Shown: one piece after another, positions 29,753 through 40,344 of the stretch
How the letters are laid out: the number at the start of each line of letters is the position of its first letter
Numbering within the stretch: the first letter of the stretch is position 1
Source of the DNA: Roseburia intestinalis
GTDB taxonomy: Bacteria; Bacillota; Clostridia; Oscillospirales; Acutalibacteraceae
DNA length: 64,000 nt
Direction of reading: 5' to 3'
NCBI GenBank assembly: GCA_963630555.1
Contig: CAVGND010000008.1
Span: 230-64,229 of the forward strand
Translations under genes and position numbers: made by a program
The notes under the pieces: generated by a model
What the model saw: the letters and a program-made list of their open reading frames with translations, nothing else
What the model was told of the DNA's origin: nothing
Database searches by the model: none

Positions 29753-32479
29753 ATGAGTTTTTTAAATAAAATTTTCGGTAATTACAGTGAAAAAGAATTA
29801 AAAAGAATATACCCTTTGCAGGAAAAAGTTTTAAAGTTAGAAGATGAATACACTGCGCTTTCGGACGAAGAACTTAAGGCGAAAACACAGGAATTTAAAG
29901 ACCGTCTTACAAACGGCGAAACGCTTGACGATATTTTACCGGAAGCGTTTGCGGCTTGTCGCGAAGCCGCTTGGAGAGTCCTCGGGATGAAACATTTTCC
30001 TGTTCAGATACTCGGCGGAATTGTTTTGCACCAGGGAAGAATAGCCGAAATGAAGACGGGAGAAGGCAAAACTTTGGTTGCGACTCTGCCCGCCTACCTT
30101 AATGCACTTGCCGGCAACGGTGTTCATATCGTAACCGTTAATGATTATCTTGCCCGCCGCGACAGTGAGTGGATGGGTAAAGTCTACCGCTTTATGGGAC
30201 TTACCGTAGGGCTTGTTGTTCCGGGTCTTCAGCCCGAAGAAAAACGCGAAGCGTATAACGCCGATATAACTTATTGTACCAATAACGAATTGGGATTTGA
30301 CTACCTTAGGGACAATATGGTGGTTGAAGCGACGGGTCGTGTTCAAAGGGGACACAGTTTTGCAATAGTCGATGAGGTTGACTCTATACTTATTGATGAA
30401 GCAAGAACTCCGCTTATTATTTCGGGCCGCGGTGAAAAATCCACCGACCTGTACGAACGTGCCGACAGAATTGCAAAAAGGCTTAAAAAATCCGTTGTTA
30501 TAGAAGTGGATAAAAAACTTACCGATGAACAGCAGAGTTTTGACGGCGATTATGTCGTTGACGAAAAGGCAAAAACCTGTACCCTTACTCCCAGCGGCGT
30601 TGAAAAGGTGCAGGAATATTTCGGAATAGATAATATCAATGACCCCGAAAACCTTGAAATAATGCATCATATCCAACAGGCGATAAAGGCTTACGGGATT
30701 ATGAAACGCGATGTTGATTATGTAGTAAAAGACGGCGAGGTTATTATTGTTGACGAATTTACGGGTCGTCTTATGATAGGAAGAAGATATAACGAGGGCT
30801 TGCACCAGGCAATTGAAGCAAAAGAGGGTGTTAAGGTCGCACACGAGTCCAAAACTCTTGCAACAATAACATTCCAAAATTTCTTCCGTCTGTATGATAA
30901 ACTTTCGGGTATGACGGGTACCGCAATGACTGAGGAACAGGAGTTCCGAGAGATATATAAACTTGATGTAATTGAAATACCCACCAATAAACCCCTTATC
31001 CGTAAAGATGACACCGATGTTGTTTACAAAACCTCACGGGCAAAATTTGCGGCGGTTGTAGACGATATTGAACAGCATCACGCAACAGGGCAGCCGATAC
31101 TTGTAGGTACGGTCACAATCGAAATAAGCGAACATCTGAGTTCAATGCTTAAAAAACGCGGGATAAAGCATAATGTTCTCAATGCTAAATTCCATGAAAA
31201 GGAAGCAGAAATAATCGCGCAGGCTGGTAAGTTCGGCGCTGTAACCATAGCCACCAATATGGCCGGGCGCGGAACGGATATTATGCTCGGTGGTAACGCG
31301 GAATATCTTGCAAAATCGGAACTGCGTAAAAAAGGATATACCGAAGAACTTATCAGCGAAGCAACGGGATTTTCGGATACCGATGATGAAGATATTTTAA
31401 AAGCACGCTGCGAATTTGCCGAATTCAGCGATAAATATAAGGCGCAAATAGTGCCCGAAGCGGAAAAAGTTCGCGAAGCGGGCGGCTTGTACATTATAGG
31501 TACGGAACGCCACGAGTCGCGCCGTATTGATAATCAGTTGCGCGGCCGTGCAGGGCGTCAGGGCGACCCCGGTGAAACCAAGTTCTATATTTCGCTTGAA
31601 GATGACCTTATGCGCCTTTTCGGCGGAGAGAGAATATATTCAATGATGGAAACCCTGAAGGTAGACGAGAATACGCCGCTTGAAGTGGGTATGCTTGCAC
31701 GTGCTATTGAAAATGCTCAACGTAAAGTGGAAAGCCGTAACTTTGAAATCCGCAAAAATGTGCTTGAATATGACGATGTTATGAATAATCAGCGCGAACT
31801 TATTTACGGGCAGCGTAACGAGGTGCTGGACGGTAAGGATATTAAACAGTCGATAATGAAAATGATATACGACTGCGTTGATGAAGCGTGTGACAGATAC
31901 CTGCATGAAGAAAGCCACGGCGGCTGGAATCTTGAAGGGCTGCGCCAATATTTTAAAGGCTGGGTGCTTACTGACGGTGACCTTGTTTACAGTGAAGAAG
32001 AAATGCATAAAATATCGGTTAACGATATAAATAAGTTTATTAAAGACAAGGTTGACGAAATGTATGCAAAACGCGAAGAGGAATTCGGCGCTTCGCTGAT
32101 GCGTGAAATTGAGCGTTATGTTCTGCTGCGCAGCGTTGATACCCATTGGATGGAACACATTGACGCAATGGATGAACTACGTAAAGGAATCGGACTTGTG
32201 GCTTACGGTCAACACGACCCTGTTGTTGAATACAAAAATCAGGGGTGCGACAGATTTAACGCAATGACCGAAGAAATCCGAGAGGAAACCGCACGGCAGG
32301 TTATGAGCGTAAGGGTACGCAAAAACGAAGAAATCAAACGCGAAAAGGTTGCCGAGGAAACAGGCACCGGCGAGGGCGACAGAACCGTAAGGGGAAAGGG
32401 CAAAGTTAGTAAAAACGCCCCCTGTCCCTGTGGCAGCGGATTGAAATACAAGCGTTGCTGCGGAAAAAATGAAAATTAG
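29753..32479 (+). CDS. secA: Preprotein translocase ATPase SecA
   Basis: [28 protein letters not shown]-terminal zinc finger [14 protein letters not shown]. Confidence 0.97.
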
Positions 32480-32482
32480 GTG

Positions 32483-32511
32483 TTGACAAACCGTTATTAC
32501 GGTGGTAGAAT
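32483..32511 (+). promoter_or_regulatory. Near-consensus sigma-A promoter of the aro operon leader
   Basis: TTGACA 32483-32488, a 17-nt spacer, extended -10 TGgTAGAAT (TG at 32503-32504, hexamer at 32506-32511). Confidence 0.6.
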
Positions 32512-32543
32512 TCATCTTGTAACAGAAAAGGAATTGATTTAGT

Positions 32544-32633
32544 ATGAATAACTGCAAAATGTTTGCAAACGAATACTTTTTTTACTATTACTTTAGCAAT
32601 TACGGTAATAGTGATTCGTGCTGCAAACGTTAA
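32544..32633 (+). CDS. 29-codon Phe/Tyr-rich leader peptide (MNNCKMFANEYFFYYYFSNYGNSDSCCKR)
   Basis: AAAAGGAA Shine-Dalgarno 11 nt upstream. 4 Phe and 5 Tyr in 29 residues, with the run YFFYYYF. It lies between the promoter and an intrinsic terminator upstream of aroF. It is below the ORF-track length cutoff. Confidence 0.6.
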   Translation: MNNCKMFANEYFFYYYFSNYGNSDSCCKR

Positions 32634-32669
32634 GTAATTGGGATTTCATACTTAACAGTTATTGTTTTT

Positions 32670-32712
32670 AACCGCACCGGATCACTACAGTCCGATGCGG
32701 TTTTTTATTTTT
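32670..32712 (+). terminator. Attenuator terminator preceding aroF
   Basis: AACCGCACCGGA-tcactacag-TCCGATGCGGTT (one mismatch), followed by TTTTTTATTTTTTTATTTT. It sits 27 nt before the aroF start. Confidence 0.7.
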
Positions 32713-32738
32713 TTATTTTGTGTGAGGAGTGATCACAG

Positions 32739-33743
32739 ATGATCGCAGTATTGAAAAAAGCAGTAACACCGGAACAGCGTGAGCACCTTATTGACTGGCT
32801 CCGCTCACAGAACCTTGAAGTACATATTTCCGAGGGGCACGATTATACAGTTTTAGGCCTTGTAGGGGACACAAGTAAAGTTGACACCGACCTTTTGCAG
32901 AGCCTTGATATTGTCGATTCGGTTAAACGCATATCCGAGCCGTTCAAACAGTGCAACCGTAAATTCCATCCGGACGACAGTGTTATAGATGTCGGCGGCG
33001 TTAAAATAGGCGGCGGAAATTTTGCAATAATAGCAGGCCCCTGCTCAGTTGAATCGGAAGAACAGATAATAGATGTAGCAAAGGCGGTAAAAGCTTCGGG
33101 CGCAAAACTTCTGCGCGGCGGCGCTTTCAAACCCCGTACATCCCCCTACGATTTTCAGGGGCTTAAAGCCGACGGTATTGAACTGCTTGTTGAGGCAAAG
33201 CAAGCCACCGGCATGCCGATAGTTACCGAAATTATGAACGCAAATCATCTTCCGCTTTTTGAAAATGTTGACCTTATCCAGGTGGGGGCACGGAATATGC
33301 AGAATTTTGAACTTTTAAAAGAACTTGGTAAAATCAATAAACCGATATTGCTTAAGCGCGGACTTGCCAACACAATAAAAGAATTTTTAATGAGTGCCGA
33401 GTACATTATGGCAGGCGGAAATCAGAATATTATACTATGCGAGCGCGGCGTCCGAACATTTGAAAGTTATACGCGTAACACGCTCGACCTTTCGGCAGTG
33501 CCGGTATTGCACGAATTGACCCACTTGCCGGTGATAGTTGACCCGAGTCACGCTACGGGCATGTCAAGGCTTGTCCGCCCGATGGCACTTGCTGCGGCTG
33601 CCTGCGGTGCGGACGGATTGATGATTGAGGTTCATAACGACCCGATACATGCGCTCTGTGACGGTGCACAGTCACTTACTCCCGAACAGTTTGACAAGGT
33701 TGCCCAAGTCGTAAACGAGATCAGAAAGGTTGTTGCAAAATGA
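32739..33743 (+). CDS. aroF: 3-deoxy-7-phosphoheptulonate (DAHP) synthase, type I-beta with an N-terminal ferredoxin-like regulatory domain
   Basis: Approximately 334 aa. N-terminal domain MIAVLKK...VHISEG...VLGLVGD, then a KDO8PS-like barrel (IIAGPCSVES, KPRTSPY). Confidence 0.92.
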   Translation: MIAVLKKAVTPEQREHLIDWLRSQNLEVHISEGHDYTVLGLVGDTSKVDTDLLQSLDIVDSVKRISEPFKQCNRKFHPDDSVIDVGGVKIGGGNFAIIAGPCSVESEEQIIDVAKAVKASGAKLLRGGAFKPRTSPYDFQGLKADGIELLVEAKQATGMPIVTEIMNANHLPLFENVDLIQVGARNMQNFELLKELGKINKPILLKRGLANTIKEFLMSAEYIMAGGNQNIILCERGVRTFESYTRNTLDLSAVPVLHELTHLPVIVDPSHATGMSRLVRPMALAAAACGADGLMIEVHNDPIHALCDGAQSLTPEQFDKVAQVVNEIRKVVAK

Positions 33744-34573
33744 CTGTAGGCGTTGTAGGATTAGGGCTTATAGGCGGTTCACTGGCACGTGCCTACAAAA
33801 AGGAAAAAAACCGCGTGCTTGCCTTTGATACCGATGTAAAAATAACCGAGTTTGCTATGCTTTCGGGTGTTGTTGACGATATTTTAACCGAAAAAAACAT
33901 AAGCGAGTGCGACCTTATATTAGTTGCGGTGTATCCTCAGGCAGCAATTGATTATGTGCGCCGCAATGCGCCGTATATCTGTAAAAACACTTTGGTAATT
34001 GACTGCTGCGGAACAAAAAGAACCGTCTGTGCCGAACTTTTTCCGGTGGCGGAAAAATACGGCTTTACATATTTAGGCGGTCACCCTATGGCGGGTACGC
34101 ATAATTCTGGATTTAAATATTCCCGTTCAAATATGTTTTCAGGTGCGCCTATGGTTATAGTTCCGCCGAGATATGACGATATTTCTCTGCTTGACCGGGT
34201 AAAAATGGCATTGCAGCCGGCACTTTTCGGCAGCATTACCGTTTCAACCGCTGAAGAACACGATAAAATGATAGCTTTTACTTCACAACTTGCGCATATT
34301 GTTTCAAACGCATATATTAAAAGCCCGACCGCAGCTGCCCACAAAGGATTTTCGGCGGGAAGTTACAAGGACCTTACAAGGGTAGCATGGCTTAACCCCG
34401 AAATGTGGGCGCAACTGTTTCTTGAAAACAGTGATAATGTGTTGTTGGAACTTGAAAATATTGTACGCTCGCTTTCGGAGTATAAGTCGGCTATTGAAAG
34501 AAAGGATAAAGTGCGGCTTGTAAACTTGCTTGATGAGGGTCGCCGCCGTAAAGAGGAGGTTGACGGAAGATGA
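33740..34573 (+). CDS. tyrA: Prephenate dehydrogenase
   Basis: NAD-binding VGVVGLGLIGGSLA and GGHPMAG. Overlaps the aroF stop. Confidence 0.88.
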   Translation: MTVGVVGLGLIGGSLARAYKKEKNRVLAFDTDVKITEFAMLSGVVDDILTEKNISECDLILVAVYPQAAIDYVRRNAPYICKNTLVIDCCGTKRTVCAELFPVAEKYGFTYLGGHPMAGTHNSGFKYSRSNMFSGAPMVIVPPRYDDISLLDRVKMALQPALFGSITVSTAEEHDKMIAFTSQLAHIVSNAYIKSPTAAAHKGFSAGSYKDLTRVAWLNPEMWAQLFLENSDNVLLELENIVRSLSEYKSAIERKDKVRLVNLLDEGRRRKEEVDGR

Positions 34574-35625
34574 AAACCGTAAAGATAAGGGCATCGTCGG
34601 AATATGAGGTCATTATATCAAAAGGTTTGCTGAGTGAAACGGGAATATATGCAAAGCGGCTTTCAAACGCCGAAACCGCTTTGATAGTAACCGACGACAG
34701 GGTAGAGCCGCTGTATGCGTCACGGGTTGAAAAATCACTCTGTGACGCGGGTATAAATGTTTTGAAATTCGTTTTTACAAACGGCGAAAAATCAAAAAAC
34801 AGCAAAACATTAATTGAAATATTGGAATTTGCCGCAAAAAATCACCTAACACGGAGCGATATAGTTATAGCGCTCGGCGGCGGTGTGGTAGGCGATTTAA
34901 CCGGTCTTGCCGCTTCGCTTTATCTGCGCGGAGTAGGGTTTTTGGCATTGCCGACAACGCTGCTGGCGGCTGTTGATTCCTCGGTAGGTGGTAAAACGGC
35001 AATAGATCTGGCTGCCGGTAAAAACCTTGCAGGCACATTTTACCAACCGCTTGCCGTACTATGTGATTATTCCGTGATTGACACATTACCCGTCAGCATT
35101 TTTAACGACGGTTGCGCCGAAGTTATAAAATACGGCGTGTTAAGCGACAGGGAACTGTTTGAACACCTGCAAAAATACGGCAGCGATTTTGATATGGAAT
35201 ATGTAATAACCCGTTCGGTTGAAATTAAGCGCGACTTCGTTGCTGCTGATGAATTTGATAAGGGAGTTCGCCAATTTTTAAATCTCGGGCACACGGTAGG
35301 CCATGCGATTGAGCGTTTAAGCTGTTACACCGTGCCGCACGGCAGTGCCGTAGCAATAGGTACGGCAACCGTGGTAAGAGCCGCCGCAAAGAACGGCATC
35401 TGTACGCAGCAGACCGCCGAAGAAATTGTAAACCTGCTTAAAAAGTTTGGTTTGCCGACCGAATGCGAATATTCGGCGGAGGAACTTTTCTGTATAATGC
35501 TTTCGGATAAAAAGCGTTCGGGTGATTTTATTAATTTTATAATTCCTAAACAAATAGGAGCGTGTATATCGCAAAAAATGGGATTGGAACAGGTCAAAAA
35601 ATTTACGGAGGACGGATTATGTTAG
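34570..35625 (+). CDS. aroB: 3-dehydroquinate synthase
   Basis: ALGGGVVGDLTGLAA, PTTLLAAVDSSVGGKTAI, GHTVGHAIE. Confidence 0.92.
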   Translation: MKTVKIRASSEYEVIISKGLLSETGIYAKRLSNAETALIVTDDRVEPLYASRVEKSLCDAGINVLKFVFTNGEKSKNSKTLIEILEFAAKNHLTRSDIVIALGGGVVGDLTGLAASLYLRGVGFLALPTTLLAAVDSSVGGKTAIDLAAGKNLAGTFYQPLAVLCDYSVIDTLPVSIFNDGCAEVIKYGVLSDRELFEHLQKYGSDFDMEYVITRSVEIKRDFVAADEFDKGVRQFLNLGHTVGHAIERLSCYTVPHGSAVAIGTATVVRAAAKNGICTQQTAEEIVNLLKKFGLPTECEYSAEELFCIMLSDKKRSGDFINFIIPKQIGACISQKMGLEQVKKFTEDGLC

Positions 35626-36890
35626 CCCAAATCAAACCTGCCGCTCTCAGCGGAAAGGTGATTGTTCCGCCCTCAAAGTCCGCCGCTCACCGCGCGCTTA
35701 TTGCTGCAGCCCTTTCCGACGGGGAGTGTGCTGTATATTGTCCTTCGATTTCGGACGATATCACTGCAACCGTTCGCTCACTTTCAGCTTTCGGCGCGGA
35801 CATAAACCATAAAGACGGAACATTCTATGTTTCGCCTATAAAAAATATTCCTGTTTCAGCGTACGCCGACTGTGGAGAGAGCGGCTCAACATTAAGATTT
35901 TTAATGCCCGTGGCGGCGGCTTTGGGGATAAATACGGTTTTTAAAATGTCGGGCAGATTGCCGGACAGACCAATGAACCCGATAGTTGACCTTTTAAGGC
36001 AGAACGGCGTTAATGTAACGCACCCCGAAAGGGATAAGTGGCAGATAAACGGAAAACTTAAATCGGGCGAATTTTGCCTGCTTGCCGATATATCATCGCA
36101 GTTTATCAGCGGTATGTTGTTTGCGTTGCCGCTTACGGGCGGCAGTTTAAAACTTGTGGGCTCAATGCAATCGGCAGGATATATTAATATGACGGTTGAC
36201 ACCTTAAAAAGTTTCGGTGTAAAATATGAATTTAAGGACAGCGTATTTACACTGTTGGCGCCGAATGGGTATGTTTCGTCAAAGAAGATAACCGTTGAAG
36301 GAGATTGGTCAAACGCTGCATTTTTCCTTGTTGCAGGCGCGTTTTCCGAAAGCGGAATAACGGTCTGCGGCTTAAATGCCGAGTCTTTACAGGGCGACCG
36401 TAAAATAATAAATATACTCAGGCAGTTAGGTGCAAAAGTGGAAATAAAAGGTGAGAGTGTAACGGTTAAAAAAGGCGTTTTCACCCGCAAACCCGTGATT
36501 GTAAATGCCGAAAACATACCGGATATAATACCCGTAACCGCGCTTGCGGCTTCGGTTTTGGCAGGGAAGACCGTTATTAAAAATGCGGGCAGATTAAGGC
36601 TTAAAGAATGTGACAGATTGTCGGCAACTGCCGAACTTTTGTCTGCCCTTGGTGCGGATATCAAAACTGAAGATGACGGTTTCATAATAAACGGCAGCAA
36701 AACCGGGCTTAACGGCGGCAGGGTAAACGGCTGCGGCGATCACCGTATGGTAATGACGGCGGCGGTAGCGGCAGCAGTTTGCAAATCGCCCGTAACCGTT
36801 TCATCGGCGGAGGCGGTGGCAAAATCGTACCCCGATTTTTTTGATGTGCTGCAAAGCGTCGGCGCTGAGGTAACATTTACGGAAAATTAA
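35619..36890 (+). CDS. aroA: 3-phosphoshikimate 1-carboxyvinyltransferase (EPSP synthase)
   Basis: VPPSKSAAHRALIAAAL, GESGSTLRFL, DHRMVMT. Start at MLAQIKPA, overlapping the aroB stop. Confidence 0.93.
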   Translation: MLAQIKPAALSGKVIVPPSKSAAHRALIAAALSDGECAVYCPSISDDITATVRSLSAFGADINHKDGTFYVSPIKNIPVSAYADCGESGSTLRFLMPVAAALGINTVFKMSGRLPDRPMNPIVDLLRQNGVNVTHPERDKWQINGKLKSGEFCLLADISSQFISGMLFALPLTGGSLKLVGSMQSAGYINMTVDTLKSFGVKYEFKDSVFTLLAPNGYVSSKKITVEGDWSNAAFFLVAGAFSESGITVCGLNAESLQGDRKIINILRQLGAKVEIKGESVTVKKGVFTRKPVIVNAENIPDIIPVTALAASVLAGKTVIKNAGRLRLKECDRLSATAELLSALGADIKTEDDGFIINGSKTGLNGGRVNGCGDHRMVMTAAVAAAVCKSPVTVSSAEAVAKSYPDFFDVLQSVGAEVTFTEN

Positions 36891-36949
36891 ATGATAATCA
36901 GCAATACGGCGATTAAAAAACACTGCATGCGGAAAGGAATGATTATAAA

Positions 36950-37978
36950 ATGGGTTCGAGTTTCGGCAATAATATTAAATTTACCGTTTGGGGGCAATCG
37001 CATTCGCCTGCAATCGGCATAACGGTTGACGGGTTGCCGGCAGGTATAAAGATAGATTTTGAGCGCCTGCAAAAATTTATGAACAGGCGCAGACCCGGCG
37101 GCACAGCGGTATCAACAGCCAGAAACGAGGCGGACGCACCCGAGTTTCTTTCGGGCGTTAAGGGCAATATTACTTGCGGTGCGCCTCTGTGCGCAGTTAT
37201 AAAAAATACCGATTGCCGTTCGCACGATTATGATGAATTGCGGAATTTGCCGCGTCCGGGTCACGCCGATTTTACGGCGCAGATAAAATATAAAGGATTT
37301 GAGGACGCAGCAGGAGGCGGGCATTTTTCGGGCCGCCTTACCGCACCGATATGCATATTGGGCGGGATCGCGTTGCAAATTTTAGAGAAAAAAGGCATAA
37401 CCGTTAAAACGAGCGTAAAATCCATAGGCTCTTGCAGCGGCACCACCGAAGAAATGCTTGCCGAGACAGCAAAAGCAAAAGCCGAAGGCGATTCGGTCGG
37501 CGGTGTTGTTGAATGTGTCATAAACGGTATGCCTGCAGGAGTCGGGTCGCCTATGATTGATTCGCTTGAAAGCCGAATATCGCATCTGGTGTTCGCTATA
37601 CCGGCCGTTCGCGGCGTGGAGTTCGGCGCCGGATTTTCAGCCGCCGAAATGCGTGGCAGTGAAAATAATGATGAATTTTATTTTGACGGTGTTACGGTTA
37701 AAACCCGAACAAATAACCATGGCGGAATACTCGGTGGCATTTCAAGCGGAATGCCGATAGTTTTCCGCACGGCACTCAAACCCACACCCTCAATTATCAA
37801 AAAGCAAAAAACGGTTAATACAGAAAAAATGTGTGATGATGAAATAACCGTAAAAGGTCGCCATGATCCATGTATAGTTTTTCGTGCTCTGCCGGTAATT
37901 GAATCGGCGGCGGCGATAGTGATATATGATGAACTGCTTGAAAATGAAAAAAACGGAGGTAATAACAATGGGAATTGA
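36950..37978 (+). CDS. aroC: Chorismate synthase
   Basis: FGNNIKFTVWGQSHSPAIGITVDGLPAG, GRHDPC. Confidence 0.92.
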   Translation: MGSSFGNNIKFTVWGQSHSPAIGITVDGLPAGIKIDFERLQKFMNRRRPGGTAVSTARNEADAPEFLSGVKGNITCGAPLCAVIKNTDCRSHDYDELRNLPRPGHADFTAQIKYKGFEDAAGGGHFSGRLTAPICILGGIALQILEKKGITVKTSVKSIGSCSGTTEEMLAETAKAKAEGDSVGGVVECVINGMPAGVGSPMIDSLESRISHLVFAIPAVRGVEFGAGFSAAEMRGSENNDEFYFDGVTVKTRTNNHGGILGGISSGMPIVFRTALKPTPSIIKKQKTVNTEKMCDDEITVKGRHDPCIVFRALPVIESAAAIVIYDELLENEKNGGNNNGN

Positions 37979-39113
37979 TGAACTGAGAAAAGAGATTGAT
38001 ACAATTGACGACCGTATTATAAAACTTATTGAACAGCGTATGGATGTGTCGGCTGAAATCGCCAAATACAAAGGCGAAAGGGGACTGCCTGTTTTGGTAC
38101 CGGAACGAGAGCGCCAAAAACTTTGCAACATTGCCGAAAAATCGCGCCCCGAAACGGCTGAGTACATGCGCGTGCTGTATTCGCTTATTTTTGAATTAAG
38201 CCGTTCATATCAGACCCGTTTGCTCGGTAAATCCACTCCTCTTTCGGACGAAATAAACAATGCTGTTGAAAATACGCAAAAACTTTTTCCGCCTGCGGCT
38301 GCGGTTGCCTGTCAGGGTGTTGAGGGCGCAAATTCCCAAAAAGCGTGCGAGGCAATGTTTAAATCTCCGTCAATTATGTATGTTTCAAGTTTTGAGGGAA
38401 TCTTCGCAGCAGTAAACAGCGGCTTGTGCCGTTACGGTGTTATCCCCATTGAAAACAGCACGGCCGGCTCTGTAAAAAAAGTTTATGATTTGATGATAAC
38501 AAACAATTTTAATATTGTAAGAAGCGTGAGAATAAAAATAGATCACTCGCTGCTTGTTAAAAAAGGAACAAAATTTGAAGATATAAAAGAAATATATTCG
38601 CACGAGCAGGCAATAGGGCAGTGCGAAAACTTCCTTTCGGGTCTTAAAGGAATTAAAGTAACCGCCTGCGAAAATACCGCATCCGCCGCAAAAGCGGTTG
38701 CAGAGAGCGACCGCGACGATGTTGCCGCAATAGCGTCAAGCGACTGTGCCGCGCTGTACGGACTTGAATGCTTAAAGAAAAACATTCAGGACGAGGGAAA
38801 TAATCACACCAGATTTATCTGCATTTCCAAAAATCTTGAAATTTATCCGGGTGCTGACCGTACAAGTCTTATGCTCGTTATTCCCCACAGACCCGGTTCG
38901 CTTTATAAGGTACTTTCCCGTTTTTACGCTTTGGGTATTGATCTTATTAAACTTGAAAGCCGCCCGTTACCGGATACCGATTTTGAATTTATGTTCTATT
39001 TTGACCTGAGGACTTCGGTATATTCGGATGAGTTTGTAAAACTCATTAGCGAGCTCGACGGCATTTGCGACGAATTCAAGTATCTCGGAAGTTATTCTGA
39101 ACTGGTGATATAA
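37968..39113 (+). CDS. pheA: Bifunctional chorismate mutase / prephenate dehydratase (P-protein)
   Basis: Chorismate mutase helix ELRKEIDTIDDRIIKLIEQRMDVSAEIAKYK. Prephenate dehydratase plus ACT domains with the TRF and ESRP motifs. Confidence 0.9.
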   Translation: MGIDELRKEIDTIDDRIIKLIEQRMDVSAEIAKYKGERGLPVLVPERERQKLCNIAEKSRPETAEYMRVLYSLIFELSRSYQTRLLGKSTPLSDEINNAVENTQKLFPPAAAVACQGVEGANSQKACEAMFKSPSIMYVSSFEGIFAAVNSGLCRYGVIPIENSTAGSVKKVYDLMITNNFNIVRSVRIKIDHSLLVKKGTKFEDIKEIYSHEQAIGQCENFLSGLKGIKVTACENTASAAKAVAESDRDDVAAIASSDCAALYGLECLKKNIQDEGNNHTRFICISKNLEIYPGADRTSLMLVIPHRPGSLYKVLSRFYALGIDLIKLESRPLPDTDFEFMFYFDLRTSVYSDEFVKLISELDGICDEFKYLGSYSELVI

Positions 39114-39114
39114 A

Positions 39115-40344
39115 ATGACGGCAAGTTCAAAAAAATACGGCTTGTTGGGTGAAAAACTGTCGCACAGCCTTTCACCGCAACTTCACGGATATTACGGTAA
39201 ATACAATTACGGCTTGATAGAATTGCCTCCCGAACAGGTTGATGAATTTTTTAAAAAACGCAATTTTTCGGGAATAAATGTAACCATACCGTATAAAAAG
39301 GATGCATACAGTCGGTGTGATGTTGTATCGGATACGGCTAAGGCGGCAGGCGCCGTAAACACCGTAATAAACCGCGGAGGGAAATTGTACGGTTACAACA
39401 CTGATTATTACGGATTTGAGTATCTTCTTAAAAAAAGCGGTATAAGTGTAGGTGGCAAAAAGGTTCTTGTTTTGGGCTCGGGCGGCGCATCGGTCACTGT
39501 TCAAAATGTGCTTCGCGACGCCGATGCGTGCGTTACCGTTATATCTCGTTCCGGGAAGGATAATTACGAAAATATAGACATCCATTCGGACGCTGACGTT
39601 ATTGTTAATACAACCCCCGTAGGTATGTACCCCAAAACCGAATATGTGCCGTTGCGTCTTGAGGTTTTTAAAAAACTTTCGGGTGTAATTGATATAATCT
39701 ACAATCCGCTCAGAACACGCTTGCTCCTGGATGCAAAACGGCTCGGTGTACCTTATGCCGACGGGCTGCCGATGCTGGCTGCACAAGGTTTTCGGTCTGC
39801 GGAACTGTTTTTGAACAAACAACTGCAGCCCGACCTCATCGAATCTGCAGAAAAACGGTTGCGGCTTTTTTTGGGCAACATAGTGCTTATAGGTATGCCC
39901 GGATGCGGAAAAACAAGTATCGGCAAAGAAATTGCACGCAAACTTAAAAAAGAGTTTATAGACACTGACAGTCTTATTGAACAGAGAACGAGTATGACCA
40001 TACCCGAAATATTTGAAACAAGCGGCGAAGAATCATTCAGGCGGATTGAGAGCAAAATAATATCTGAAGTCGGCAAAAAAACCGGCGCGATTATAGCAAC
40101 GGGCGGTGGTACTGTAACGCGCGAACAAAACCGCGCACCGCTTTCTATGAACGGTACGGTTGTGTTTATTAAAAGGGATATATCGCTTTTACCAAAAAGC
40201 GGCAGACCTGTTTCTCAGCAGCGCGGTCTTATGCATATATGGGCGGAACGCAAAGAACTTTATGAAGAATTTGCCGATATTACTGTTGAGGGCGATGGTG
40301 TTAAAAATCTGTCGCACCGAATAATTGAAACAGTTACGGACTGA
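39115..40344 (+). CDS. Fused shikimate dehydrogenase (N-terminal) and shikimate kinase (C-terminal)
   Basis: AroE motifs (GLLGEKLSHSLSPQLH, NVTIPYK, GSGGAS), then the AroK P-loop IVLIGMPGCGKTSIGKEIA, all in one 409-aa ORF. Confidence 0.88.
   Translation: MTASSKKYGLLGEKLSHSLSPQLHGYYGKYNYGLIELPPEQVDEFFKKRNFSGINVTIPYKKDAYSRCDVVSDTAKAAGAVNTVINRGGKLYGYNTDYYGFEYLLKKSGISVGGKKVLVLGSGGASVTVQNVLRDADACVTVISRSGKDNYENIDIHSDADVIVNTTPVGMYPKTEYVPLRLEVFKKLSGVIDIIYNPLRTRLLLDAKRLGVPYADGLPMLAAQGFRSAELFLNKQLQPDLIESAEKRLRLFLGNIVLIGMPGCGKTSIGKEIARKLKKEFIDTDSLIEQRTSMTIPEIFETSGEESFRRIESKIISEVGKKTGAIIATGGGTVTREQNRAPLSMNGTVVFIKRDISLLPKSGRPVSQQRGLMHIWAERKELYEEFADITVEGDGVKNLSHRIIETVTD

Follow-up and report, generated by a model that had tools for sequence, protein, structure and literature searches.

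In a 64,000-nucleotide (nt) stretch of DNA from Roseburia intestinalis (NCBI GenBank assembly GCA_963630555.1, contig CAVGND010000008.1, positions 230 to 64,229; GTDB Acutalibacteraceae), hereafter the window, a short leader lies in the gap between secA and aroF, directly in front of an operon for aromatic amino-acid biosynthesis. Here, we present sequence-based evidence that this leader is very probably a ribosome-mediated (leader-peptide) transcription attenuator of the aroF-tyrA-aroB-aroA-aroC-pheA-aroEK operon, reading the charging of tRNA-Phe and tRNA-Tyr. It combines the classical features of such attenuators: a translatable short open reading frame (ORF) with a ribosome-binding site and start codon, a cluster of codons for amino acids of the pathway, a terminator before the first gene, mutually exclusive 1:2, 2:3, and 3:4 pairings with region 1 lying on the codons, and a stop codon placed to block the 2:3 pairing.

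The promoter of the leader matches the sigma-70 consensus at 11 of 12 positions, and transcription is predicted to start near position 32518. An earlier note on this DNA had described this promoter (TTGACA-17-TGgTAGAAT at 32483-32511), an ORF of 29 codons (32544-32633) preceded by a Shine-Dalgarno sequence and containing nine Phe or Tyr residues, and an intrinsic terminator in front of aroF. All three are present, the terminator as a hairpin followed by a U-rich run (Table 1). In addition to the run of sensor codons, the leader ORF contains a further Tyr codon at 32601-32603. RNA folding assigned -16.3 to -16.8 kcal/mol to the terminator hairpin (32670-32702), and the leader RNA as a whole (32518-32720) folded to -54.8 kcal/mol, compared with -34.3 +/- 3.9 kcal/mol for dinucleotide shuffles (z = -5.2, 0 of 200 as good). 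A generic terminator scan did not pick up the hairpin in the window, probably due to the internal mismatches in its stem; RNAfold and the covariance model described below both do.

Table 1. Coordinates of the leader, its putative regulatory regions and downstream operon in the window, and of related attenuators in front of other genes
Feature	Position	Strand	Details
Sigma-70-type promoter, extended -10	32483-32511	+	TTGACA 32483-32488, 17-nt spacer, TAGAAT 32506-32511, TG 32503-32504
Shine-Dalgarno-like AAAGGAA of the leader	32527-32533	+	10 nt 5' of the ATG at 32544
Outer helix, 5' strand	32532-32567	+	includes leader start codon; pairs with 32622-32660 in minimum-free-energy folds
Leader ORF, 29 codons	32544-32633	+	peptide MNNCKMFANEYFFYYYFSNYGNSDSCCKR; 4 Phe + 5 Tyr among 29 residues; stop codon at 32631
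Region 1, 5' strand of 1:2 hairpin	32569-32595	+	overlaps the Phe/Tyr codons; from folding and the family 1:2 test
Sensor codons Y-F-F-Y-Y-Y-F	32574-32594	+	TAC TTT TTT TAC TAT TAC TTT, read in the sequence
Region 2	32601-32621	+	includes antiterminator strand UAGUGAUUCGUGC at 32609-32621; 32601-32619 pairs with region 1
Spacer and outer helix, 3' strand	32622-32660	+	UUCAUACU (32645-32652) pairs with AGUAUGAA (32541-32548)
Intrinsic terminator	32670-32719	+	hairpin 32670-32702, then U-rich tract to 32719
Region 3	32674-32687	+	part of terminator 5' arm, loop, and first base of 3' arm; pairs with region 2
aroF Shine-Dalgarno GAGGAG and ATG	32724-32741	+	both outside the terminator hairpin; ATG at 32739
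Putatively regulated operon: aroF, tyrA, aroB, aroA, aroC, pheA, aroE-aroK fusion	32739-40344	+	Pfam assignments, ORF map
Attenuators directly upstream of stand-alone tyrA	L084:101-210, L087:1679-1788, L100:4537-4653		metagenome contigs; R1 E about 1e-9 to 1e-10
Attenuators upstream of the PF04392 lipoprotein gene	L086:4439-4552, L094:1671-1784, L107:1697-1811		

The 1:2 hairpin (32569-32619, -12.5 kcal/mol) joins the strand that carries the sensor codons to region 2. It contains an 8-base-pair (bp) stem formed by ACTATTAC (32584-32591) and GTAATAGT (32605-32612), which the earlier note had placed one base too far to the left and had interpreted as a competing structure. The stem exists, but its reading as a rival was wrong: it belongs to the classical 1:2 hairpin, which holds region 2 when the leader is untranslated or the ribosome has passed. 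The coordinates proposed for the antiterminator, GTGATTCGTGC (32611-32621) with GCACCGGATCAC (32674-32685), were correct, and folding extends this duplex to 13 bp and one bulge between 32609-32621 and 32674-32687, with the segment 32604-32689 folding to -22.9 kcal/mol.

To follow these pairings along the leader, we represented the ribosome by a block of unpaired bases reaching from -15 to +12 relative to the A-site codon and moved it codon by codon over a transcript cut at 32689, before the 3' arm of the terminator. In the window, the probability (P) that region 2 pairs with the 5' arm was 0.00 without a ribosome, 0.43-0.63 with the A site at 32553-32589, including Y-F-F-Y-Y-Y, and at most 0.03 from 32592 through the stop codon. 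In this model, the leader displays the off/on/off pattern of a classical attenuator, and the claim that a ribosome at the stop codon prevents the 2:3 pairing is borne out (P about 0).

These features suggest the following course of events. Transcription would begin near 32518, and a ribosome would load on the leader ORF at 32544. With Phe and Tyr plentiful, this ribosome would pass the YFFYYYF run toward the stop codon at 32631, region 2 (32601-32621) would then be inside the ribosome or re-paired with region 1, and the 5' arm of the terminator would be free. The hairpin at 32670-32702 would form and RNA polymerase would halt in the U tract. Without any translation, the 1:2 hairpin and the outer helix would lead to the same outcome, termination. 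If charged tRNA-Phe or tRNA-Tyr were scarce, the ribosome would stall on 32574-32589 and mask region 1; the freed strand 32609-32621 would pair with the newly emerging segment 32674-32687, the 5' arm and loop of the terminator would be taken before the 3' arm is made, and the polymerase would continue into aroF.

The earlier note had named conservation of the mini-ORF in relatives as a test beforehand, and the mini-ORF is conserved. A search with AroF in one genome per GTDB species yielded 80 loci with 64-97% protein identity, hence 81 with the window, mostly from gut and rumen Clostridia (Lachnospiraceae, Oscillospiraceae, Ruminococcus, Acutalibacteraceae, Anaerovoracaceae, Faecalibacterium, Angelakisella, and Pseudoflavonifractor); the closest relative, L001, shares 90% DNA identity across 7 kb. 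Counting an ORF as Phe/Tyr-rich if it has at least five of these residues within eight, an ATG-started small ORF of this kind was found 140-240 nt upstream of aroF in 64 of the 81 loci (examples are MKNMLFAFAYFYFYFYFKVR... and MKTLNFAAEYFYFSFYFTKSK...). Two leaders with a TTG start and one with a weaker run bring this number to about 67. The leaderless remainder mostly comprises loci with another gene directly upstream (pheA in two), Bacteroidaceae, or a spirochaete-labelled locus (L075). Among small ORFs in the 300 nt upstream of aroF, 62 of 127 are Phe/Tyr-rich, compared with 27 of 4282 (0.6%) elsewhere in the same loci, and 8 of 2747 random 300-nt windows (0.3%) contain such an ORF.

Signals for translation and transcription accompany the codon run. 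Across 64 loci, an upstream ATG is consistent only in the Phe/Tyr frame; the other two frames have none in 105 of 128 cases and an in-run stop in 11 more. Predicted pairing of the region before the leader ATG with the anti-Shine-Dalgarno sequence has a median of -6.05 kcal/mol in the family versus -0.9 kcal/mol at control positions. In 37 of 53 loci, a strong sigma-70-type promoter precedes the leader, with a median of 31 nt between its end and the leader ATG (32 nt in the window). Across the family, Phe accounts for 17% of leader residues, Tyr for 15%, and Trp for 0.2%, and their codons show synonymous variation at the third position (TTT 258, TTC 41, TAC 153, TAT 115).

A few contigs among the relatives carry unexpected taxonomic labels. 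The metagenome-assembled Bacteroidaceae contigs L015, L023, L034, and L061 encode an AroF 68-74% identical to that of the window without a leader, and contigs labelled Alloprevotella (L013) and Treponema (L064) have a Clostridial-type leader and aroF with 73-79% identity. This pattern suggests mis-binning or horizontal transfer.

Conservation is also apparent at the RNA level. Just 3' of the Phe/Tyr codons, the relatives share the nucleotide motif AAAGTAAnAGTGATTTGTGCTGCA (region-2 consensus AGTAAnAGTGATTyGTGCTGCA). Its 5' half can pair with the codon run (UACUUUUACUUU with AAAGUAAAAGUA, the 1:2 hairpin; 77-82% paired in alignment A2) and its 3' half with the 5' arm and loop of the terminator. 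Relative to the antiterminator strand, the leader stop codon comes first in 25 loci, follows in 25, and falls within the strand in 5, and the peptide endings of the type '...SNSDLCCK' are the region-2 motif read in frame at some loci, with the motif following the stop codon elsewhere. As the motif is kept before, inside, or after the stop, it is conserved as RNA and not as peptide. In about 49 of 55 loci, the stop codon is no more than about 15 nt away from the antiterminator strand, on either side (48/50 outside plus 5 inside). Within the codon run, replacement of the Phe codon UUU by the Tyr codon UAU is accompanied by a change from A to U on the region-2 strand (pair 20:71: UA 27, AU 21, UG 14). 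Second codon positions alternate between U and A in nearly all cases, which amounts to a choice of Phe or Tyr, and do not change to C or G. This implies a coding constraint on top of the pairing constraint.

In most loci, a strong intrinsic terminator separates the leader ORF from aroF. Pairing in the 9-bp core of this terminator amounts to 85-97% in the family alignments (stem value 96.7%), and compensatory changes, which the earlier note had suggested looking for in relatives, occur at all nine stem pairs. RNAalifold on the MAFFT alignment recovered the terminator only; the 1:2 helix was given by hand. A crude terminator finder missed terminators with an interrupted U tract, such as those of L012 and L018, which the covariance model later found.

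Because the pairing registers shift between lineages, complementarity was tested per locus and not per column. The 2:3 duplex is more stable with its cognate arms than with the arms of other loci (-13.7 versus -10.1 kcal/mol; z = -10), and the same holds for the 1:2 duplex (-13.4 versus -9.6 kcal/mol; z = -11), with 0 of 5000 permutations as good in either case. With a reversed partner of the same composition, both effects vanished (2:3, z = -0.8; 1:2, z = -1.3). De-replication to 46 loci hardly changed the value for 2:3 (z = -9.8), but since the loci are phylogenetically related, these z-scores overstate the number of independent observations. Together with the ribosome-position scan, the locus-specific complementarity backs the antiterminator role proposed by the earlier note and also the stem that the note had called competing. 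A fourth locus-specific pairing links the region of the Shine-Dalgarno sequence and AUG to the spacer between region 2 and the terminator (cognate -10.6 versus -8.2 kcal/mol; z = -6.9). In the window, this outer helix hides the leader's own start codon (AGUAUGAA with UUCAUACU) after the spacer is transcribed, and it could limit leader translation to the first, co-transcriptional ribosome.

Beside the relatedness of the loci, several observations weigh against the attenuator model. On the full leader, the terminator is favoured at every ribosome position (P about 0.96; -26.4 kcal/mol with the terminator formed). With the terminator as the most stable fold of the complete leader, the decision must be kinetic, and in our model antitermination would depend on co-transcriptional kinetics, the timing of which we infer. 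The decision of the E. coli trp attenuator is generally understood as kinetic. Moreover, a stall anywhere between 32553 and 32589 would antiterminate, so that structure alone gives no amino-acid specificity, and the last Phe codon of the run (32592) and the Tyr codon at 32601 are outside the effective stall window. When 55 loci were scanned, stalling raised pairing of the 5' arm in 44 (p about 1e-5), in a noisy data set with a clean off/on/off pattern in only 7-12 loci. In a fixed-column test, the five antiterminator pairs were 72.9% paired with no covariation beyond that of shuffles; the columns are conserved and the register shifts between lineages, C83 pairing with column 159 in the window and with column 164 in the consensus type. 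Finally, the aroR leader upstream of aroF in Corynebacterium glutamicum responds to limitation of Phe only, not Tyr (PMC11802643), and dual sensing is therefore not to be assumed for the window.

A covariance model, R1, built from the aroF loci only (135 positions, 22 pairs), provided a further view of the family. Of 96 sources, 73 had a match, exactly one for each locus and in every case directly in front of aroF, tyrA, or the transporter gene. R1 found a single copy in the window, where no second copy of the attenuator was found elsewhere in the 64 kb. Held-out loci and all metagenome leaders were recovered (E = 1e-6 to 1e-13). The metagenome contigs had been searched with the 20-nt region-2 motif only, which returned 28 loci. 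We discarded 11 of them as chance matches inside coding genes, and R1 had no match among these. The other 17 are Phe/Tyr leaders, of which 9-10 precede aroF, three tyrA, and three a gene of Pfam family PF04392, with one cut off. At L080, a weak R1 match (1149-1277, E about 0.005) is situated about 290 nt upstream of aroF, and no Phe/Tyr-rich ORF was found within the proximal 330 nt; this match may be a degenerate or displaced copy.

The composition of the leader peptides differs with the downstream gene. Leaders in front of stand-alone tyrA, encoding prephenate dehydrogenase, are dominated by Tyr in runs of the SYYYYYYF type (MTNLFATNSYYYYYYFNN, MTKSFVAISYYYYYYFEN, and MISSFAVSYYHYYYYFKN). Those in front of the PF04392 lipoprotein, a substrate-binding protein of an ATP-binding cassette (ABC) transporter, contain Tyr, Phe, and one Trp (YYYGYYFW type; MTMIRRSYYYGYYFWMQE), and these loci may represent an attenuator-controlled aromatic amino-acid uptake system. 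Among aroF leaders, the median Y/(F+Y) is 0.50 where tyrA directly follows aroF (n = 48) versus 0.30 where it does not (n = 9), the latter operons being of the type aroF-aroB-aroA-aroC or aroF-pheA (Mann-Whitney p = 1.5e-4, uncorrected for relatedness). The codon mix thus tracks the regulated gene, which a non-translational model does not predict.

Known riboregulators were searched for with Rfam 15, a different riboregulator such as a T-box being the second outcome that the earlier note had specified in advance as a test. At gathering score, no match was obtained in the whole window (including tRNA, riboswitch, T-box, and ribosomal-protein leader families) or in 37 member or neighbouring loci, and at E of at most 10, only three sub-threshold matches were found in 32400-32800, none to a T-box or leader family. 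The T-box (RF00230) or another known riboregulator was rejected for lack of a covariance-model match in the window and the 37 loci. Likewise, Phe_leader (RF01859) and the Leu/phe leader (RF01743) had no match at E of at most 10 in 32400-32800 and none at gathering score in the window and the 37 loci.

These data also bear on the possibility that the leader is a structured RNA switched by a ligand, an RNA-binding protein, or uncharged tRNA, with the Phe/Tyr 'ORF' as a by-product of the U/A-rich UACUUUUACUUU pairing with AAAGUAAAAGUA. Such a switch would agree with the nucleotide conservation of region 2 (AGTAAnAGTGATTTGTGCTGCA) whether or not it is translated, with antiterminator columns that are conserved rather than covarying, as expected of a binding site, and with the base-pairing constraint on the codon strand itself. 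However, it leaves unaccounted for an ATG or TTG with a Shine-Dalgarno sequence in the Phe/Tyr frame of about 67 loci when the other frames almost never have a start, second codon positions that switch almost only between U and A though pairing alone would permit C and G, and synonymous variation at third positions. It also does not fit the peptide composition, Tyr-rich before tyrA and Phe-rich where tyrA does not follow aroF, or the absence of a match to any Rfam family, the T-box included. We consider this explanation unlikely and favour attenuation by a translating ribosome.

According to Pfam, the window aroF encodes 3-deoxy-D-arabino-heptulosonate 7-phosphate (DAHP) synthase and pheA a chorismate mutase-prephenate dehydratase, in agreement with the earlier statement that the operon encodes both TyrA and PheA. 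AroF bears an N-terminal ferredoxin-like FXD domain (32739-32940), which we take to be regulatory; if so, allosteric feedback on AroF would operate alongside the attenuator. The aroE and aroK genes are fused in one ORF of 409 amino acids (39115-40344; Shikimate_dh_N and SKI domains). Upstream, secA ends at 32479, at a distance of 4 nt from the leader promoter's -35 box (32483), and no terminator of its own was found in between, so that read-through from secA would stop at the attenuator hairpin. This arrangement and the presumed regulatory function of the FXD domain could be taken to mean that the hairpin is mainly a terminator for secA or a constitutive partial terminator, the operon being controlled by AroF feedback or a DNA-binding repressor. 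Yet of 71 related loci only one has secA as its upstream neighbour, while the leader and its terminator remain associated with aroF, tyrA, or the transporter gene, and a constitutive terminator leaves the conserved locus-specific 1:2 and 2:3 complementarity unexplained, which makes this interpretation very improbable.

That the mini-ORF encodes a functional aromatic-rich micropeptide, for instance in the membrane or in signalling, co-transcribed and ended by its own terminator, is hardly credible: the ORF does have its own promoter, Shine-Dalgarno sequence, and terminator, and a few homologues are called as genes in public collections, always unnamed, but only the Phe/Tyr run is kept as peptide while length (16-60 residues) and both termini are free to vary, the C-terminal 'SNSDLCCK' is an RNA motif in frame at some loci and past the stop at others, aromatic amino-acid genes invariably follow the element directly, and the alternative pairings would have no role. 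In an exact look-up of ten leader peptides in a collection of 15 billion proteins, eight were absent and two present, both unnamed.

Leader-peptide attenuation is a textbook mechanism in Proteobacteria, and for the synthesis of aromatic amino acids in Firmicutes the controls usually named are T-boxes, TRAP, or repressors. The earlier note had accordingly regarded the arrangement as unusual for Firmicutes. It is less unusual than the note claimed, as similar His, Leu/Phe, and Acholeplasma aroF leaders have been reported and such leaders are the rule among the sampled Clostridia. A Clostridial Phe/Tyr leader of aroF was not found described in the open-access literature, although a mention in older comparative work is possible.

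The closest analogues share parts of this design. The aroR leader of C. glutamicum is ribosome-mediated, contains a Phe-Tyr-Phe motif, and raises transcription upon stalling (Neshat et al. 2014, as summarised in PMC11802643). By description, it resembles the window leader as an attenuator before a DAHP synthase gene in a Gram-positive host with both Phe and Tyr in the leader, and differs in its actinobacterial host and in its three-residue sensor versus the runs of 6-10 seen here. Brewer et al. (2021, PMC8632094) described uORFC-13-1, with 24 representatives from Acholeplasma and unassigned environmental sequences, located exclusively upstream of aroF. It comprises a predicted promoter, ribosome-binding site, start codon, upstream ORF in which a U run encodes 'at least one' Phe, and adjacent intrinsic terminator, interpreted by the authors as translation-speed-dependent attenuation (PMC8632094). 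Compared by description, all of these functional features are present in the window; the paper makes no mention of Tyr codons, Clostridia, or tyrA or transporter targets.

More distant parallels are the pheL-pheA leader of gamma-proteobacteria (RF01859) and the Leu/phe leader of Lactococcus (RF01743, PMC2864571), which likewise have tandem Phe codons, 1:2, 2:3, and 3:4 hairpins, and an intrinsic terminator. In contrast to these, the window sensor mixes Phe and Tyr and would control the common shikimate pathway and both terminal branches, not pheA or a leu operon alone. Leader-peptide attenuators for His occur in Firmicutes, namely in the Bacillus cereus group, Peptostreptococcaceae, and Erysipelotrichales (PMC2965389, PMC9413887); they too use classical leader-peptide attenuation in place of T-boxes, but for another amino acid and other operons and with unrelated sequence. 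In Clostridioides difficile, an unclassified premature termination event was detected experimentally in the aroF 5' untranslated region (UTR) (Fuchs et al. 2021, PMC8237595). This is likewise a Clostridial aroF 5'-UTR attenuator without a known riboregulator family, for which the paper proposes neither a mechanism nor a leader peptide.

Extending from the window to its relatives, we see about equal chances for and against a broader picture, in which gut and rumen Clostridia of the Lachnospiraceae, Oscillospiraceae/Ruminococcaceae, Acutalibacteraceae, and Anaerovoracaceae share one homologous, uncatalogued attenuator family. It would govern a small regulon of the aroF operon, tyrA, and ABC uptake, with a Phe:Tyr(:Trp) codon mix tuned to the target, and replace the T-boxes and TRAP of Bacilli; the conserved strand GUGAUUUGUGCUGCA might also contact a trans-acting factor.

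Mechanistically, the leader represents a variation on a textbook theme and not a new principle. From sequence comparison, the mechanism is of a known kind and the family appears new to the catalogues and widespread in Clostridia, with extra targets. R1 offers a ready-made covariance model for leaders of roughly 130 nt that are now unannotated and whose peptides hardly ever appear as called genes and in no case bear a name. It is tempting to see in them a natural two-input sensor for Phe and Tyr, with a codon ratio that seems to follow the gene content of the operon, and a candidate mechanism for the unexplained termination in the C. difficile aroF 5' UTR. If our interpretation is true, a leader-peptide attenuator would be the common control of the shikimate operon in those Clostridia that are dominant members of gut and rumen communities, which is of practical interest as the aromatic amino-acid metabolism of these bacteria feeds host-relevant metabolites.

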